Source: Solirubrobacteraceae bacterium (GTDB taxonomy: Bacteria; Actinomycetota; Thermoleophilia; Solirubrobacterales; Solirubrobacteraceae). Taken from it: a stretch of DNA of 64,000 nucleotides. The DNA lies in the NCBI GenBank assembly GCA_036389485.1, contig DASVPR010000037.1, forward strand, positions 22,972 to 86,971, written 5' to 3'. A program made the translations under genes and the position numbers. Positions 40,546-46,856 of this stretch are shown one piece after another. The notes under the pieces are model-generated. The model did no database searches. It saw only the letters and a list, made by a program, of their open reading frames with translations, and had not been told where the DNA came from. Position 1 is the first letter of the stretch. Each line of letters starts with the position of its first letter.

Positions 40546-41235
40546 GTGCGGGTCGTGCACGTCGAGCACCCGGACGGCCGCGGCCCCGGCGTGTTCGGCG
40601 AGGGCGCCGAGGTCGTGAGGTGGCGCGCGTTCGAAGACCCGCCGCCGACCGGGCCCGTCGACGCGATCGTGCTCTACGGCGCCTCGACGAACATCGTCGA
40701 TGCGCCGGACTGGCTCGCCGTGGAGATGGGGTGGCTGCGCGAGCGGCTGGAGACAGGGACGCCCGTCCTCGGCGTCTGCTTCGGCGCGCAGGTCCTCGCG
40801 CACGCGCTCGGCGCCGAGGTCGCGCGCGCCCGCGAGCCGGAGATCGGGTGGCTGCCGGTGACGCTCACGGCCGCCGGCCGCGCCGATCCCGTGCTCGGCG
40901 CGCTCCCCGAGCGGTTCCTCGCCTGCCAGTGGCACTCGTGGGCGTGCGCGGTGCCCGAGGGCGGGATCGCGCTCGCCGAGTCGCCGGTGTGCCTCCAGGC
41001 GTTCCACGCCGGCAGCGCCTGGGGCGTCCAGTTCCACCCCGAGGTCGACGACGAGACGCTGTCGACGTGGATCGACACCTACCGCAACGACCCGGACGCC
41101 GTGCGACTCGGCTTCGACCCCGCGCTGGCCCACGCCGCCCGCGAGCAGAACCTCCCACGCTGGAACGAGCTCGGCCGGCGGCTGTTCAGGGCGTTCCTGC
41201 GCGCCGCGCCGCGAGCGACGACGCGACGATCATGA
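40546..41235 (+). CDS. class-I glutamine amidotransferase-like protein (GATase1)
   Basis: It has a nucleophile elbow (GVCFGAQVLA) and a His/Glu motif (GVQFHPE). The start is GTG, 3 nt after potC. Confidence 0.7.
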   Translation: MRVVHVEHPDGRGPGVFGEGAEVVRWRAFEDPPPTGPVDAIVLYGASTNIVDAPDWLAVEMGWLRERLETGTPVLGVCFGAQVLAHALGAEVARAREPEIGWLPVTLTAAGRADPVLGALPERFLACQWHSWACAVPEGGIALAESPVCLQAFHAGSAWGVQFHPEVDDETLSTWIDTYRNDPDAVRLGFDPALAHAAREQNLPRWNELGRRLFRAFLRAAPRATTRRS

Positions 41236-41401
41236 AGAGGAAGACCGGCACGTACCACCAGTCGCGACCGAGCATCGACGCGACGAGCCCGACGACGCCG
41301 GCGGCGGCCCCGACGACGTAGGCGGTGCGGTGGTGGCGGCGGGGCAGGAGCGGGAAGCGGCCTTGCGGCCGCTCCCCCTCCGGACCGTGGGCTCCGCTCA
41401 A
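41186..41401 (-). CDS. 71-aa two-TM membrane protein; candidate Rhs immunity protein
   Basis: The TTG start overlaps the Rhs TGA (TTGA at 41398-41401). About 90% of codons end in G or C. It has two hydrophobic helices (AYVVGAAAGVVGLVASML and WWYVPVFLFMIVASSLAA). Its 3' end overlaps the convergent GATase1 tail by 50 nt. Confidence 0.5.
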   Translation of the reverse strand: MSGAHGPEGERPQGRFPLLPRRHHRTAYVVGAAAGVVGLVASMLGRDWWYVPVFLFMIVASSLAARRAGTP

Positions 41402-44400
41402 CGGTGCCGCCTCCGCCGGCTGCGGCGGCGGCTGCGACCCGTGCGCTCACCGGCGCGCTCGCCGGTGCCCTCGCCGCTGTCCTCGTCGCTCTCCTCCGAC
41501 TCCTCCTCGTCATCGTCCTCGGACTCGTCCTGGAGCTTGTTGCCGATCATCCCGGTCGTGCCCGCGAGGGCCGCTCCGCAGCCGACGGCGCCGACCCCGG
41601 TCTCCGCCGTGGCGCAGATCAGGCCCGTCCCCACCACGGCGCCGCCCACCTCCAGGGCGTCGAACACGTCGAACATCCCCGTCGGGTCCGTGCGGTTGAC
41701 CGGATCGCCGCCGCCGTAGAGGTACGGGTTGCCGCCCCGGAGATCGTCGGCCCGGTCGACCGGGTCAAGCTGCGTCCACCGCATGAGCGACGGATCGTAG
41801 TAGCGCTGACCGAAGTGGTACAGGCCGCCCACGGACCGGTAGCCGCCCGCGAACCCGAACTGGCCGTTCGCGACGTCGGCGGCGCCCGTGGTCGCTCCCC
41901 ACTGCCCCGCGGCGCGCGGTGCGGGCGTGCCGTACGGCTCGTAGTCGTAGCGCTCGGCGACGGCGCCCGTCGAGTCGGTCAGCCCGGTCACGGAGCCGAT
42001 CGCGTCGAACAGGTAGTAGTGCCGCGTCGCGCCCGACCGCCGGGACACGAGCCCGCCGCCGTCGTCGTACGTGAAGTACGTCGTCCCGCGCGCGCCGATG
42101 CCCAGCACGTTGTGCTGGAAGCTGCTCGCGCCCTCCGTGATCCAGCGGTCCTGGCCCTCGCCCAGGTAGACCATGTTCGTCGGCGAGCCCGAGATCGTCA
42201 GGTTCGTCGTCTGGTCGAGCAGGTTGTAGGTCCCGGAGCGGCCGGGGCTCGTGAGCTCGTTGCCGTTCTTGTCGTAGGTGAACGCGGGTGTCGTCGCCGG
42301 GCACGCCGGCGGCGTGCTGATCGTCGTCCCCGCCTGCTTCGCGCACAGCTCGTTGAACGAGTTGTAGCCGTAGTCGGTGATCGCGTTGGGTGCCTGGCTG
42401 CCCGTGACGCTGGTCTTGACCACGTTCCCGGCCGCGTCGAGGTTGTAGTCGTAGCCGGCGAGCGTCGCGTTCGTCGTCCACGTGCCCGTCGACGACTTGA
42501 TGATCGCCGTGTCGAGACGGTCGAGCGCGTCGTACGTGTACCGCGTCGTCAGCCCGAGCTTGCCGTCGATCTTCTCGAAGATCATCGGCGTCTCGCGCGA
42601 CGTCACCGGGTCCTTGTAGGCGTAGTTGAACTTCTGCAGCGTCGCCGCCGCGCTGTTCTTCGCGTGGATCTCCGACAGGCGGAACGCGGGGTCGTAGATC
42701 TGGTCGATCGTCACCCCGTTGGGGTACGTCGTCTTCGTCCGCTGCCCCTCCTTGGAGTGCTCGAACTTCGTCGGCTTGGCCACGCCCGGGTCGTACACGG
42801 CACGGACCTCGTTGACCGCGTTGTACGTGTACTCGACCTTGCCTCCGGCATCCGTCAGCGACCGAAGGTTGCCGACGGCGTCGTAGGTGTACGTGTTGGA
42901 GCCGCCGCCGGGCAGGCTCTCAGTCAGGACGCGGTTGAGCTGGTCGTAGGTCATCGAGCGCGTGCGCAGCGTGCCCGTGCCCTGCTCCCGCGTGTCCTCC
43001 TGCGTCAGGTTCCCGTCGCGGTCGTACGTGTACTGGACGTACGGCTCGGTGGCGCCGAGCACCTGGTCCGCCCCGGTGAACTCCACCTTCTTGAGCCGGT
43101 CGAGGCTGTCGTAGGTCAGGATCCGCCAGTTGTCCTTGCCGTCCTGGACCTTGTCGACGCGGGCCAGGGTCTGGTTGTAGGTCAGCCGCGTCGGGCCGGT
43201 CGGGTTCGGCGTCCCCGGGTTCGGCGGGGTGATCAGGTTGACGTTGCCCTTGGCGTCGTAGCCGTAGCTCGTCGCGTTGCCGCGCGGGTCGGTGATGCCG
43301 GTCAGCTGCCCCTTCTTGCCGTCGATGGACGACGTCGTCGGGGCGTAGCTCATGCTCACGCCGGCGAGCAGCGTCCCGCTGTTGCTCGTCTGCCGCACGC
43401 TGTACGGGTTGCCGTTCGTATCGGTCGCGCCGGTGTCCTGCCAGCCGAACTCGGTCCGCCCGCCCTGGGCGTTCGTCGCGCGGCCCGGCAGGTACTTCGA
43501 CCCGGCGACGCCCGACGGCACGCCGGTGTAGCCGGCGGGAGCGGAGTCGCACGGCTGCGTGTCCACGCCGCCGAAGTCCGCGCACCCGCGGATGCTGCCG
43601 GCGGCGACGGGTGTGTCCGTCTTCGTCGGGTTGTCGTCGGAGTCGTAGGTGAGCGACGTGTTCGGCGTCGTGCCGGTGTTCGACGCCGCGGTGTAGCTCT
43701 CGACGTTGGAGTTGCTCGTGAACTTCCGGCTGGTCTCGCGGCCGAGCGCGTCGATCGTCTTCGTGACGCGGCCCTGCTCGTCGAAGACGTACCGGGTGAC
43801 GCGGTCGTTCTCGTCCCCGGTCGCCGTGCCGATCGGGTCGGTGACCTTGGTCTCGCCGGAGCCGTCGCGGCGCAGGTCGTACTCGAACGTGGTCGTCGGG
43901 CCGGTCATGTTCACCGTGTCCGTGACCCGCGTGACGGTCTGGACCTTGCTCGCGTACTCGTGCCCGTAGGGGTAGTAGTCGATCAGGGTGATGTCGCCCT
44001 GTGGGGTCGTGATCTTGGTGAGCTCCCCGTTGGGCCCGTCGTACTGGTAGAGCGTCTTGAAGCTCGCGCCGTTCTGCGGGTCCGTGTAGCTGTCCATGAA
44101 CGGCCCGGTGTACGCGTACGAGTGCACGCGGCCGGCCGGGTCGGTCATCGAGCTGATGTACGAGCCGGTGTACGCGAAGCGGACGTCGTCGGCCGTCGTC
44201 GCCGTGTCGTTGTTCGAGTCCTCGATGCGCAGCAGGTTGCCGCTCGTCGCGTCGTAGACGAAGCTGAGCTTGCGCCCGTTGCGATCCTCGATCTCGTACA
44301 TCCGCCCGTTCTTCGTGTAGTTCTCGAAGCGGTACTTCGTCTGGGTCTTGTGGTCGGTCAGCTGCCACTTGCCGGCGGCCGGGACATCCTTCTGCAGGGT

Positions 44401-46068
44401 GTTGTTGAACCCGGGCGGGGTCTTGTAGCTGCCGTCGGGCTGGCGGTCGTAGATCCCCTTCGCGCCGCTCGGGAAGACGAGCCGCATGAAGGCGCCGCCG
44501 GCGTTCTGCTCGAGCTGGAGGTCCGGACCGGTGTCCACCTGCCAGTCGGCCATCGAGTCGAGCGTGTCGTCCAGGCTGTTGTAGCTGCGGGTCACGCTGA
44601 CGGCCGGCCCGAGCCCGCCCGGCATCGAGAAGTCCTTGTTCTGGACCAGCAGGTTGCCGGAGTTCACGTTGACGCCCAGCGTCATCCGGTCGGTGAGGCG
44701 CTGGTCCTCGTAGATCCAGCCGCGGCGCTTGCCGATGCGCTCCTTGATGACGACGTTGAGGTACGGCTTGTGGGAGAGGGACTCGTTGCTGTCCAGCCAC
44801 GTCCCGTTGGTGCCGGACGGGAGGCTGAGCACCATGCCGTGGTTCGCACGCTTGCCCGAGACCCACTCCCGGACGATCTTGAGCATCGTCCAGTAGTTCT
44901 CGCCGCTGATCCCGCCCGCGCCGCCGGGGAACTCGGCCCGCGCGGTGGTGTCGCCCTCGCCGCCCGGCTCCGACCACCGGTCGGTGCCGTTGTTGCGGTT
45001 CCAGCTCGCGGCGCTGGTGAACGGCTCGGTCAGCGGATCCACCTGGATGTCGGCCCAGGTCAGGGTCTGGTCGTTGGTCTGCCACGCGACCAGCGTCGCT
45101 CCGGCGACGTCGACGCCCCGCGGGATCCCGGCCAGCGGGAACCGCATGACGATGTGGTGGTCGTGCCCGCCCACCATGCCGACCTTCATCGGGTTGGCGG
45201 CGCAGAAGCTCGAGTCCGGCAGGCTGGCGTCGAGGTAGCAGTCGCCGTCGGGGTTCGGCGTCGTCACCGGGTCGACCGTCACCGGCCAGGCCCGCCCCGG
45301 CTTGTCCAGCCACGCGTCGCTCAGGCCGTACGTCAGTCGCCAGCCGTCCGCGGTCTTCGCGACTCGCGCCTTCACCGCCGCGGTCCGGCGCTTCGCGTCG
45401 ACCATGAACGGTGCGCTGACGGTCAGCCGGCTCCGCCCGAGCTTGTCGCGCAGCGCGACGGCACCGGTGCGGAGGACCTCGGGGTGCAGCCCGGGCGTCA
45501 TCGAGAGATCGAAGGAGAAGTCACGCGTGGAGCCCGGGCCGCGCAGCACGAGGTCCTCCTTGACCGCGCCGAGCTGCGTGCGGTAGACGACGTCGACGCC
45601 GGGCAGCGCGCCGGGGTAGCGCGCGGTCGCGCCGCGCGCCTCGGCGGCGGCGCTCGCGCCGCGAAGGTCGAATGCCAGCCACCACCGCCCCTTGCGGACG
45701 CGGACCGTGTCGTCGCCGAGCCGCAACGGCAAGCTGGTCGAGAAGCTGTTGCGGCGGTTCAGGAGCCGGCCGTGCAGCTCCTGCAGCCGCGTGTCGATGT
45801 CGCGCCAGCGCCCGGCCGCGTCCCGGTAGTGGACCGGCGAGGTGTAGAGGCGCGCGACCTTCTCGCCGTCGCGGCCGACGAACGTCTTCGATGTCCGCGT
45901 CCTCAGGCGGACGACTTCATGACCGACGCGCAGCTCGCGCTTCAGCGTGGCCCGGGCCGCAGCAGCAGCCGCCTTTGCGTGGCCGGGGCGAGGCTTCGCG
46001 GCGAGCGCGAGCGGCGCGACGAGGGCGGTGCAGAGCAGCGCAGCGAAGACGAAGATCGATCGGCGCAC
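41398..46068 (-). CDS. Sec-exported Rhs/YD-repeat polymorphic-toxin-type protein (1556 aa)
   Basis: GTG at 46068 is preceded by a perfect AAGGAGG Shine-Dalgarno with 5-nt spacing. It has a signal peptide (MRRSIFVFAALLCTALVAPLALA) and dozens of YD repeats (YTYDAVGN, YGYDAKGN, YTYDRDGN...). The core ends in GLYHFGQRYYDPSLMRWTQLDP...GGDPVNRTDPTGM. Confidence 0.9.
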   Translation of the reverse strand: MRRSIFVFAALLCTALVAPLALAAKPRPGHAKAAAAAARATLKRELRVGHEVVRLRTRTSKTFVGRDGEKVARLYTSPVHYRDAAGRWRDIDTRLQELHGRLLNRRNSFSTSLPLRLGDDTVRVRKGRWWLAFDLRGASAAAEARGATARYPGALPGVDVVYRTQLGAVKEDLVLRGPGSTRDFSFDLSMTPGLHPEVLRTGAVALRDKLGRSRLTVSAPFMVDAKRRTAAVKARVAKTADGWRLTYGLSDAWLDKPGRAWPVTVDPVTTPNPDGDCYLDASLPDSSFCAANPMKVGMVGGHDHHIVMRFPLAGIPRGVDVAGATLVAWQTNDQTLTWADIQVDPLTEPFTSAASWNRNNGTDRWSEPGGEGDTTARAEFPGGAGGISGENYWTMLKIVREWVSGKRANHGMVLSLPSGTNGTWLDSNESLSHKPYLNVVIKERIGKRRGWIYEDQRLTDRMTLGVNVNSGNLLVQNKDFSMPGGLGPAVSVTRSYNSLDDTLDSMADWQVDTGPDLQLEQNAGGAFMRLVFPSGAKGIYDRQPDGSYKTPPGFNNTLQKDVPAAGKWQLTDHKTQTKYRFENYTKNGRMYEIEDRNGRKLSFVYDATSGNLLRIEDSNNDTATTADDVRFAYTGSYISSMTDPAGRVHSYAYTGPFMDSYTDPQNGASFKTLYQYDGPNGELTKITTPQGDITLIDYYPYGHEYASKVQTVTRVTDTVNMTGPTTTFEYDLRRDGSGETKVTDPIGTATGDENDRVTRYVFDEQGRVTKTIDALGRETSRKFTSNSNVESYTAASNTGTTPNTSLTYDSDDNPTKTDTPVAAGSIRGCADFGGVDTQPCDSAPAGYTGVPSGVAGSKYLPGRATNAQGGRTEFGWQDTGATDTNGNPYSVRQTSNSGTLLAGVSMSYAPTTSSIDGKKGQLTGITDPRGNATSYGYDAKGNVNLITPPNPGTPNPTGPTRLTYNQTLARVDKVQDGKDNWRILTYDSLDRLKKVEFTGADQVLGATEPYVQYTYDRDGNLTQEDTREQGTGTLRTRSMTYDQLNRVLTESLPGGGSNTYTYDAVGNLRSLTDAGGKVEYTYNAVNEVRAVYDPGVAKPTKFEHSKEGQRTKTTYPNGVTIDQIYDPAFRLSEIHAKNSAAATLQKFNYAYKDPVTSRETPMIFEKIDGKLGLTTRYTYDALDRLDTAIIKSSTGTWTTNATLAGYDYNLDAAGNVVKTSVTGSQAPNAITDYGYNSFNELCAKQAGTTISTPPACPATTPAFTYDKNGNELTSPGRSGTYNLLDQTTNLTISGSPTNMVYLGEGQDRWITEGASSFQHNVLGIGARGTTYFTYDDGGGLVSRRSGATRHYYLFDAIGSVTGLTDSTGAVAERYDYEPYGTPAPRAAGQWGATTGAADVANGQFGFAGGYRSVGGLYHFGQRYYDPSLMRWTQLDPVDRADDLRGGNPYLYGGGDPVNRTDPTGMFDVFDALEVGGAVVGTGLICATAETGVGAVGCGAALAGTTGMIGNKLQDESEDDDEEESEESDEDSGEGTGERAGERTGRSRRRSRRRRHR

Positions 46069-46256: not shown

Positions 46257-46856
46257 TTGGAAGTGCTGGGAGTAGTTCTGGCGGCGCCGGAGCCGCTGTT
46301 CCGTCTCGGGATGAGGCTCGCGTGCGAGCGTGGGGGCGTCGGGGTGCTGGCCGAGGCCGCCGACGCGGTGTCGCTGCGGACGTCGGTGGCGCAGCTCGCC
46401 GCCCCGGCGGTGATCGTCAGCGACGTCGAGACCCTCGAGCCCGACTCGGCGTCCACCGTGCAGTCGCTCTCGGCGATGCACCGGGTGCTGGTGCTCGACG
46501 CCGGGCCGGTCGACCATCCGCGCCTCCTGCGCGCGGGCGCGTCGGGGTTCCTGCGGCGCCGGGCGGAGCCGACGTCGCTCTGCCAAGCGGTCGCGAGGGC
46601 GCATCGCGGCGAGCTGGTCCTCGAGGGCGCGGGCTCGGAGCCGGCGGCGGCGGGCTCGGACCCGGTCCGCTTGACCACGCGCGAGGTCGAGGTGCTGCGC
46701 GCGATCGCCAGCGGGCGATCGAGCGACTGCGCCGCCCGCGAGCTGCACATGAGCACGACCACGCTGAAGACCCACCTGCGCAACGCCAGCGCGAAGCTCG
46801 GAAGCGCGAACCGCGCCGCGGCGGCGGCCCGGGCGACCCAGCTGGGGCTGCTGTGA
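46257..46856 (+). CDS. NarL/LuxR-family response-regulator-like protein with a degenerate receiver domain
   Basis: The C-terminal segment is a LuxR HTH (LTTREVEVLRAIASGRSSDCAARELHMSTTTLKTHLRNASAKLG). In the receiver-like N-domain the acidic DD pocket is replaced (VVLAAPEPLFR). I chose the TTG at 46257, which follows GAAAGGAAG; the GTG at 46263 and the ATG at 46206 are alternatives. Confidence 0.65.
   Translation: MEVLGVVLAAPEPLFRLGMRLACERGGVGVLAEAADAVSLRTSVAQLAAPAVIVSDVETLEPDSASTVQSLSAMHRVLVLDAGPVDHPRLLRAGASGFLRRRAEPTSLCQAVARAHRGELVLEGAGSEPAAAGSDPVRLTTREVEVLRAIASGRSSDCAARELHMSTTTLKTHLRNASAKLGSANRAAAAARATQLGLL

Follow-up and report, generated by a model that had tools for sequence, protein, structure and literature searches.

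The closest known counterpart of the system considered here is Tse5, an Rhs toxin of P. aeruginosa whose C-terminal fragment of 149 residues forms pores selective for cations and causes depolarisation of cells; its Rhs shell chaperones the toxin, and the cognate immunity protein, Tsi5, is a membrane protein with two transmembrane (TM) segments (PMC9637101; PMC10684867). Within the literature found, this Gram-negative type VI secretion system (T6SS) toxin is the only membrane-inserting Rhs cargo to have been characterised experimentally. The locus that we compare with it lies in a 64,000-nt stretch of DNA (hereafter the window; G+C content approximately 74%) from a Solirubrobacteraceae bacterium (assembly GCA_036389485.1, contig DASVPR010000037.1, positions 22,972–86,971 of the forward strand), within which all coordinates below are counted. 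It comprises a gene for a 1556-residue Rhs/YD-repeat polymorphic toxin (41398–46068, minus strand, including the stop codon), which ends in a 91-residue tail, and a small downstream gene encoding a 71-residue protein. By analogy with the known systems, we think it reasonably probable that this is a Sec-exported Rhs toxin whose cargo is a membrane-inserting, depolarising hairpin, with the 71-residue protein as its two-TM immunity protein.

A second point of comparison is the WapA type of Rhs protein. The C-terminal toxins of B. subtilis WapA are RNases. WapA-CT1 of S. suis has a Sec signal, a DNRLRE domain and a DUF6531-Rhs plan together with LysM repeats, and its CT1 domain resembles the nuclease NucB (PMC12704120). 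Non-enzymatic cargo is nevertheless known among Rhs proteins: besides Tse5, the predicted two-helix pore-forming domain Tox-WTIP was described on proteobacterial RHS proteins by Zhang et al. (2012) (PMC3482391). The initial annotation of the window had set the tail apart from Rhs cargo in general, which it took to be normally enzymatic; with Tse5/Tsi5 (PMC9637101; PMC10684867) and Tox-WTIP already on record, that contrast is weaker than claimed.

The Rhs scaffold and its predicted export

The scaffold itself is readily recognised. Pfam PF05593 matches eight RHS-repeat stretches (E 6e-30), DUF6531 occupies residues 466–520, and NCBIfam TIGR03696 (Rhs_assc_core) covers residues 1389–1465 (E 5e-16), with TIGR01643 (YD repeats) matching as well. 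DUF6531 and the repeat shell together span 41674–44673 (minus strand) and close with the Rhs-associated core, in which both Asp1435 (DPVD) and Asp1461 (DPTGM) are present at the core end; the first boundary motif in this clade is DP[LV]D[QR] rather than DPxGL. An AlphaFold2 (AF2) model of residues 441–1556, built with 32 aligned relatives, reached a pLDDT (predicted local distance difference test) score of 83.7 and a predicted template modelling score of 0.83. It is confident through model residue 1027 (protein residue 1467), and from 1028 (1468) onwards pLDDT falls to approximately 23. A Foldseek search of the PDB with the shell model returned Rhs cocoons as its top matches, namely 8qja, 7q97 (RhsA), 8cp6 (the shell of Tse5) and 7pq5. 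The matches at E 1e-47 to 1e-40 were T6SS Rhs cores, RhsA, Tse5, Tse15 and Rhs1-Tre23, followed by teneurins and TcB-TcC. The shell model has the closed beta-spiral fold of these cocoons, although Foldseek template modelling scores were only 0.3–0.47.

Upstream of the shell, a predicted Sec signal peptide (MRRSIFVFAALLCTALVAPLALA/AK; 46000–46068, minus strand), judged by eye from the sequence, is followed by a DNRLRE domain (residues 276–439; 44752–45243, minus strand; NCBIfam NF033679, E 4.7e-16). The latter is likely a carbohydrate or cell-surface binding module; the CBM96 module, a relative of DNRLRE domains, is carbohydrate-binding and binds alginate (PMC9971899). No T6SS or type VII secretion system (T7SS) targeting domain was detected in the Rhs protein. 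Because of this, and because the order is signal peptide, DNRLRE, DUF6531 and Rhs, we read the locus as a Sec-exported Rhs toxin with the N-terminal plan of WapA in a monoderm actinobacterium.

In common with the WapA-type proteins of B. subtilis and S. suis (WapA-CT1), it has a Sec signal, DNRLRE, DUF6531, an Rhs shell, a polymorphic C-terminus and a downstream, here candidate, immunity gene (PMC12704120). It differs from them in size (1556 aa vs 3158 aa) and in its predicted membrane-type peptide, where theirs is a nuclease-like cargo. Unlike S. suis WapA-CT1, it has no LysM repeats detectable with Pfam or NCBIfam, and no SrtB or SecF-like partner genes were found among the ORFs examined around it. 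With Tse5 (RhsP1)/Tsi5 it shares, as far as sequence alone can tell, an Rhs cocoon, a non-enzymatic hydrophobic cargo at a DPxG-type boundary and a small two-TM protein immediately downstream. However, the cargo sequences are unrelated, at 149 aa in Tse5 and 91 aa (with a 48-aa core) here, and export of Tse5 depends on PAAR, VgrG and the T6SS, in place of the Sec signal and DNRLRE surface domain found in this monoderm organism. A phmmer search with the tail against all PDB chain sequences, which include Tse5 as 8cp6, gave only compositional matches (E ≥0.03) and no Rhs entry.

The 91-residue tail, its hairpin family and the partner gene

The protein is 100% identical to P0001, a 'DNRLRE domain-containing protein' from a Solirubrobacteraceae metagenome-assembled genome (MAG). 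Its core terminus reads ...YLYGGGDPVNRTDPTGM (...GDPVNRTDPTGM in the NCBIfam core), and is followed by FDVFDALEVGGAVVGTGLICATAETGVGAVGCGAALAGTTGMIGNKLQ-DESEDDDEEESEESDEDSGEGT-GERAGERTGRSRRRSRRRRHR and the stop codon, i.e., 91 residues (1466–1556; 41401–41673, minus strand). Our translation is identical to that of the initial annotation, so that the 1556-residue protein, the boundary at DPTGM1465 and the length of the tail all stand. We considered whether the charged part of the tail was a frameshift or assembly artefact. This was ruled out because the G+C content at third codon positions (GC3) is 0.945 across the tail (hairpin 0.98, acidic part 0.955, basic part 0.857) vs 0.76 and 0.57 in the shifted frames, and because the same layout occurs in an independent metagenome assembly (protein P0002, locus L001).

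The tail has three parts. The first 48 residues (1466–1513; 41530–41673, minus strand) form the putative toxin hairpin, two small-residue-rich hydrophobic helices joined by the turn ETG, with Cys1485 and Cys1497, both invariant, bracketing the turn at five residues on either side. An acidic low-complexity run follows (41464–41529, minus strand; 15 D/E in 22 residues), encoded by imperfect 12/24-nt repeats, and the C-terminus is Arg-rich (41401–41463, minus strand; 11 R and 1 H in 21 residues). These charges had been described as a paired acid/base tail, but with 21 D/E vs 12 K/R and a net charge of −9 over the whole tail they are unbalanced, and the arrangement is not conserved among homologues. 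Likewise, a composition of 'almost purely' G/A/V/T overstated the case, as these make up 30 of the first 48 residues (62%).

Modelled alone, the tail is predicted by AF2 to form a helix at residues 3–24, a loop at 25–27 and a second helix at 28–45, then coil. The pLDDT was only 51, too low a confidence for a fold search. Both helices have an Eisenberg hydrophobicity of approximately 0.5 and a moment of 0.08–0.15; the combination of this hydrophobicity with a low hydrophobic moment suggests helices buried in the membrane, not amphipathic ones lying on its surface. The glycine zipper proposed for this segment survives only in a loose form. Six small-xxx-small-xxx-small patterns are present in the hairpin, whereas a regular-expression search with the strict definition of PMC12744356, (G/A/S)xxxGxxxG and GxxxGxxx(G/S/T), found neither. 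Among six hairpins of the family (the window, P0002, P0033, P0063, P0064 and P0065), only P0063 contains the strict patterns.

The strict motif is one of the features that separate the tail from the LXG toxins. Of these, TspA and EsxX cause membrane depolarisation and have membrane-bound immunity proteins (PMC12744356). These toxins and TelE resemble the tail in having C-terminal small-residue-rich helices on a Gram-positive polymorphic-toxin scaffold, but they are LXG/T7SS-delivered rather than Rhs/Sec-delivered and carry (G/A/S)xxxGxxxG. Their toxin domains are also larger, the EsxX C-terminal toxin construct extending over residues 321–517 (PMC12744356). The CdiA-CT ionophores of contact-dependent inhibition systems similarly have polymorphic C-terminal helical domains, a putative glycine zipper and cognate immunity (PMC11630599), but they are Gram-negative and delivered by CdiA and the type V secretion system, and their entry domains use inner-membrane receptors. 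Tox-WTIP is comparable in that two membrane-spanning helices serve as the C-terminal toxin of an RHS protein (PMC3482391); the tail, which has no Trp, lacks the Tox-WTIP motifs RxxR and Wx[ST]IP.

No match to the tail was found in Pfam (at E ≤1), NCBIfam or the PDB sequences, whether to an enzyme or to anything else, in agreement with the earlier statement that it contains no recognisable enzyme motif. That it could not be assigned to a described Rhs C-terminal family also holds, since the tail does not conform to Tse5-CT, Tox-WTIP or the strict glycine zipper, and a link to microcin V (below) is sub-threshold. In kind, then, this would be a known arrangement, a pore-forming Rhs cargo with two-TM immunity as in Tse5, while the tail itself appears from its sequence to represent an undescribed small family.

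Composition alone would not single the hairpin out, as G/A/V/T-rich 48-residue segments occur in 3/31 coding ORFs of the window. Nowhere else in the approximately 14,300 local residues does such an acidic run occur, and the Arg run is nearly unique too. What marks the feature as non-random is the conservation of its core on other scaffolds. P0002, whose shell is 75% identical, has a homologous tail (TGLxCATAETGVGAxxCGAxL) and shares the ending RRSRRR(R)HR with the window. A two-sequence profile then recovered the tail of P0033 (shell 32% identical) at E 1.9e-7 among 80 tails, and a three-hairpin profile searched against 1.84 billion representative proteins gave only four matches, at E 4.9e-5 to 5.8e-4. 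These are P0065, an orphan Rhs C-terminal fragment that starts MGRWTQQDP... and lies after a gene resembling the RecN C-terminus (by eye); P0066, an Rhs C-terminal fragment with the hairpin in two tandem copies; P0063, a 78-aa protein that stands alone and begins with 30 leader-like residues (ELTDEQLRQAAGAG); and P0064 (L081 114–830), a 238-aa signal-peptide protein from a contig of 54% GC, which has the near-identical hairpin GTGAACATVETGVGAVACGAG at its end and lacks an Rhs part. The recurrence on other scaffolds that the initial annotation had proposed to look for was thus found on other Rhs shells and in a standalone peptide, the latter a departure from Tse5; the four library matches (E ≤0.001) included neither a CdiA nor an LXG protein.

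Across eight aligned hairpin copies, taken from Rhs tails, the orphan Rhs fragment, the standalone peptide and the non-Rhs protein, the core C-x-T-x3-G-x-G-A-x2-C can be written, with C20, T22, G26, G28, A29 and C32 of the tail (protein residues 1485, 1487, 1491, 1493, 1494 and 1497) invariant in 8/8. Of the acid/Arg extension, P0002 has a weak form and P0065 a vestige, and P0033, P0063, P0064 and P0066 lack it; it is therefore not a defining part of the toxin.

Other searches added no members. A database search with the tail only returned no matches, not even the identical P0001, probably because low-complexity words are unindexed, and is uninformative on rarity; tblastn of the hairpin against plasmids found no match. 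An eight-hairpin profile recovered only P0063 and the small 74–85-aa proteins P0067–P0071 (E 0.1–8), which share CATAETGxGAxxC but were not counted as family members given these E-values and their uninformative gene contexts. Proteins of this set (e.g., from Actinophytocola; L086 3001–3258, L087 3001–3225) contain CATAETG(V/I)GA(I/A)xC and are otherwise dissimilar, P0068 adjoins a gene for a MauE-family membrane protein, and the likeness may be that of a recurring hairpin-turn motif rather than homology. A second group of Cys-bracketed hairpin tails (L049, L024, L028, P0007 and L035) was also rejected as kin: hhalign gave a probability of 0.6% (E 0.099) and the family hidden Markov model (HMM) misses it, leaving only the architecture in common. 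As a separate observation, contigs L083 and L084 carry the identical orphan P0065 and diverge right after it, downstream of position 776, where L083 has a two-TM ORF of approximately 60 aa and L084 an ORF for a 75-aa product that by eye resembles HlyD; either recombination or chimeric assembly could account for the divergence.

The candidate immunity gene (41186–41401, minus strand; 71 aa, two hydrophobic helices with GRDWW between them) has a TTG start that overlaps the Rhs stop (TTGA) and a GC3 of 0.90. A Shine-Dalgarno sequence, GGAGG, lies 8 nt upstream of the TTG (41410–41414, minus strand), inside the Arg codons, so that the last codons of the Arg extension double as the ribosome-binding site of the immunity gene. 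A sigma-70 promoter scan between the Rhs gene and the 71-aa ORF gave nothing, which fits co-transcription but is weak evidence. In L001, P0002 is followed by a homologous 69-aa ORF with a GTGA overlap (tblastn E 3.7e-5). The ORF after the standalone P0063 (locus L079) is homologous too (LPRRxH ... D/E-W ...; BLASTP E 3e-4), and was the best non-self match of a two-sequence HMM among 5795 ORFs (E 0.0026). After P0033, P0065 and P0066 there are small proteins, or a C-terminal segment, with two hydrophobic helices for which homology is not demonstrable. Homologues of the 71-aa ORF beside the P0002 and P0063 hairpins, and different small ORFs after different tails, bear out the expected co-inheritance of tail and small membrane protein. 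Because two adjacent genes are each weakly but specifically similar across different delivery contexts, the pair has the signature of a toxin/immunity module, in which the immunity role is predicted.

These results bear on the possibility that the tail is an inert remnant, the decayed, low-complexity vestige that a high-GC genome has kept of a toxin domain since lost, with a fortuitous ORF downstream. Although this genome has many G/A/V/T-rich segments, the charged part derives from repeats and shows little conservation, and profile matches are lacking, such an origin is very improbable in our estimation: six positions of the core are invariant in all eight copies on varied scaffolds, the downstream ORF has homologues adjoining two other hairpins, and both the ORF and the hairpin (0.98) show high GC3.

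The standalone form instead suggests a comparison with class II microcins and glycine-rich bacteriocins (microcin V; Caulobacter CdzC/CdzD), which are Gly/Ala-rich, shorter than 100 aa and accompanied by small membrane immunity proteins (PMC11630599; PMC5380434). These are made as leader precursors exported by an ABC (ATP-binding cassette) transporter, the class II leader being of the double-glycine type and cleaved by a C39 peptidase, in contrast to the leaderless C-terminus of a 1556-aa Rhs protein in the window. It is conceivable, if rather doubtful, that the hairpin acts as a receptor-dependent bacteriocin-like peptide that would dock on a membrane protein of the target and jam or open it, with the two-TM protein binding the toxin-receptor complex. 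In its favour are the leader-like N-terminus of the 78-aa P0063, a faint Pfam MccV match to its leader and N-terminus, the moderate hydrophobicity and negative net charge of the window tail, which argue against unaided insertion, and the need of microcins V, E492 and H47 for membrane receptors (PMC11630599). Against it, the MccV match (E 0.029) is below threshold (cutoff 27 bits), NCBIfam bacteriocin leader models do not match P0063, and the P0063 contigs, at less than 2 kb, are too short to show a C39-peptidase ABC exporter. As the outcome would still be de-energisation of the membrane, a receptor would refine rather than replace direct insertion of the hairpin.

Exchange of tails across the clade

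The same boundary was followed across Solirubrobacterales Rhs proteins, hereafter the clade. A full-length search gave approximately 40 relatives at 30–75% identity, nearly all of 1473–1600 aa and therefore all short-tailed, and two scans with the conserved shell end added 74 loci from Solirubrobacterales/Thermoleophilia-type MAGs and metagenomes. Against P0003–P0009 and P0013, identity is 0.68–0.75 over residues 1401–1465 and then 0.04–0.38 over residues 1466–1513. Locus L078 (P0003) has the same gene order as the window and L001 (Ferritin_2, TatA, GerE, Rhs, small ORFs, GATase, ABC permeases), and yet its tail and small ORFs are unrelated to those of the window. The proposal that the tail is a swappable polymorphic-toxin module is upheld by this abrupt loss of identity after the core, which extends even to a syntenic locus; an invariant tail, which would have spoken against it, was not seen.

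Shortness, on the other hand, is no peculiarity of the window tail, as had been supposed, for in this clade it is the rule. Among 80 distinct clade tails the median length is 81.5 aa, 77/80 are of 115 aa or less, and the shortest are 52–60 aa. A hydrophobic segment is present in 27 of the 49 locus-derived tails. Small ORFs (35–200 aa, −30 to +120 nt from the Rhs stop) with at least two hydrophobic segments follow the tail in 31 of 46 evaluable cases vs 36 of 370 at random positions.

This distribution matters for a further possibility, namely that the tail is no toxin but a C-terminal membrane anchor, whose hydrophobic stretch and poly-Arg would act as a stop-transfer or sorting-like signal to hold the Rhs protein on the surface of the producer. 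Gram-positive anchoring signals consist of a hydrophobic segment and then a positively charged tail, which the window tail resembles, and a Sec signal with a surface-type DNRLRE domain would suit such a role. We nevertheless give an anchor hardly any credence. The segment begins where the Rhs-associated core ends, at the site where the cargo of Rhs proteins is cleaved off and encapsulated (PMC10684867), and orthologues carry unrelated, often non-hydrophobic tails at that position. Moreover, the hairpin is also found outside Rhs proteins, with the standalone P0063 having a two-TM partner of its own, and most hairpin homologues are without a basic tail.

Several other features of the clade were seen in passing. 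By eye, at least three other recurrent short tail types appear: one with the motif TH..S....H.VCDSQGCKH (P0003, P0008, P0023 and P0031); one of approximately 100 aa that is Gly-rich and beta-looking, with several members ending in W/F (P0004, P0017, P0021, P0025, P0043, L010, L017 and L046); and one with an N-terminal hydrophobic helix and then a basic region (P0015, P0018, P0024, L005 and L008). Contigs L006/L042 (JAABUN010000216.1), L030, L035 and L040 have two to three Rhs core ends each, every one with a short tail and a small membrane ORF; either the Rhs genes stand in tandem there or the contigs contain arrays of orphan C-termini with their immunity genes. In the P0008 genome (L077 9722–12692), the orthologous Rhs gene is followed by 1 kb without a called gene and then by TrbC, TraC and TraG-like conjugation genes, which suggests that this Rhs locus lies near an integrative conjugative element.

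Proposed mode of action and neighbouring genes

A membrane-targeting role is the best reading of the tail, and established Rhs biology supplies the outline of how it would work. The Rhs shell would enclose the C-terminal 91 residues (PMC9637101; PMC10684867), an aspartyl-protease motif at the core boundary would cut after M1465, and the shell would deliver the hydrophobic peptide to a neighbouring cell. The active part would be the first 48 or so residues, a helix-turn-helix hairpin possibly stapled by a Cys1485–Cys1497 disulfide, as suggested by the placement of the two cysteines five residues either side of the turn. We propose that the hairpin embeds itself in the target cell's cytoplasmic membrane, oligomerises by small-xxx-small packing and dissipates the membrane potential. 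The 71-aa protein, translated by coupling at the TTGA overlap, would act within the membrane to shield the producer, much as Tsi5 counters Tse5. The acid/Arg extension is lineage-specific and probably disordered; it may be a solubilising or packaging element, with the Arg run possibly binding lipid or teichoic acid.

A number of observations weigh against this proposal. The hairpin lacks the strict glycine-zipper motif, its hydrophobicity is moderate (Kyte-Doolittle 1.4–1.7 per helix), and the net charge of −9 is unfavourable for spontaneous insertion into an anionic membrane. The AF2 pLDDT of the hairpin (51) is low and the tail is disordered in the context of the shell (~23). The family is tiny, its library-wide E-values are marginal, and P0064 has no visible two-TM or immunity ORF downstream in L081. 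The ratio of nonsynonymous to synonymous substitution rates between the window and L001, 0.40 for the hairpin and 0.34 for the shell, is uninformative, as the segments are short and synonymous change (dS ~1) is saturated. In addition, autoproteolysis, encapsulation and the disulfide are all inferred, and the function of the family is predicted from sequence and analogy.

A broader and bolder reading, which we regard as an outside chance, is that a whole Thermoleophilia clade of Sec-exported Rhs proteins has specialised as capsules for bacteriocin-like membrane toxins of 50–115 aa, that its cassettes shuttle between Rhs C-termini and free-standing leader-peptide bacteriocin genes, and that in the lineage of the window the acid/Arg extension is an intramolecular electrostatic mask. 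In such a mask, the polyanion would neutralise a lipid-binding or voltage-driven poly-Arg until release, like engineered activatable cell-penetrating peptides. If true, this would link two toxin classes that have so far been treated as separate.

What appears new at this locus is the Sec-exported, WapA-like Gram-positive context, a peptide-sized cargo as the rule of a clade, and a cassette held in common with a standalone, leader-bearing peptide. Chaperoning of membrane toxins by the Rhs shell may thus extend to monoderm Actinomycetota whose Rhs proteins are exported by Sec, and the 48-aa core and the 52–60-aa tails of the clade suggest that cargos down to approximately 50 residues are packaged. 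The same predicted toxin/immunity cassette would occur in two forms, at the end of an Rhs protein and as a bacteriocin-like peptide on its own. Furthermore, a 48-aa core with two invariant cysteines is accessible by chemical synthesis, which opens its membrane activity, and neutralisation by the 71-aa protein, to direct testing; should it prove active, a soil lineage with hardly any cultured members would have yielded a small new scaffold for antibacterial peptides.

On either side of the locus, two arrangements may be added. The 3' end of the 71-aa ORF overlaps a convergent glutamine-amidotransferase gene (40546–41235, plus strand) by 50 nt (41186–41235), compared with 4 nt in L001. Divergent from the Rhs gene lies a gene for a GerE/LuxR-type regulator (46272–46853, plus strand; 60% identity to the L001 GerE gene by tblastn), which may be a dedicated regulator of the toxin. 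A divergent GerE gene beside Rhs is also found in L001 (3207–3809), L076 (3418–3786), L077 (3224–3841) and L078 (3275–3883), and in two of these four related loci the neighbourhoods are otherwise different.

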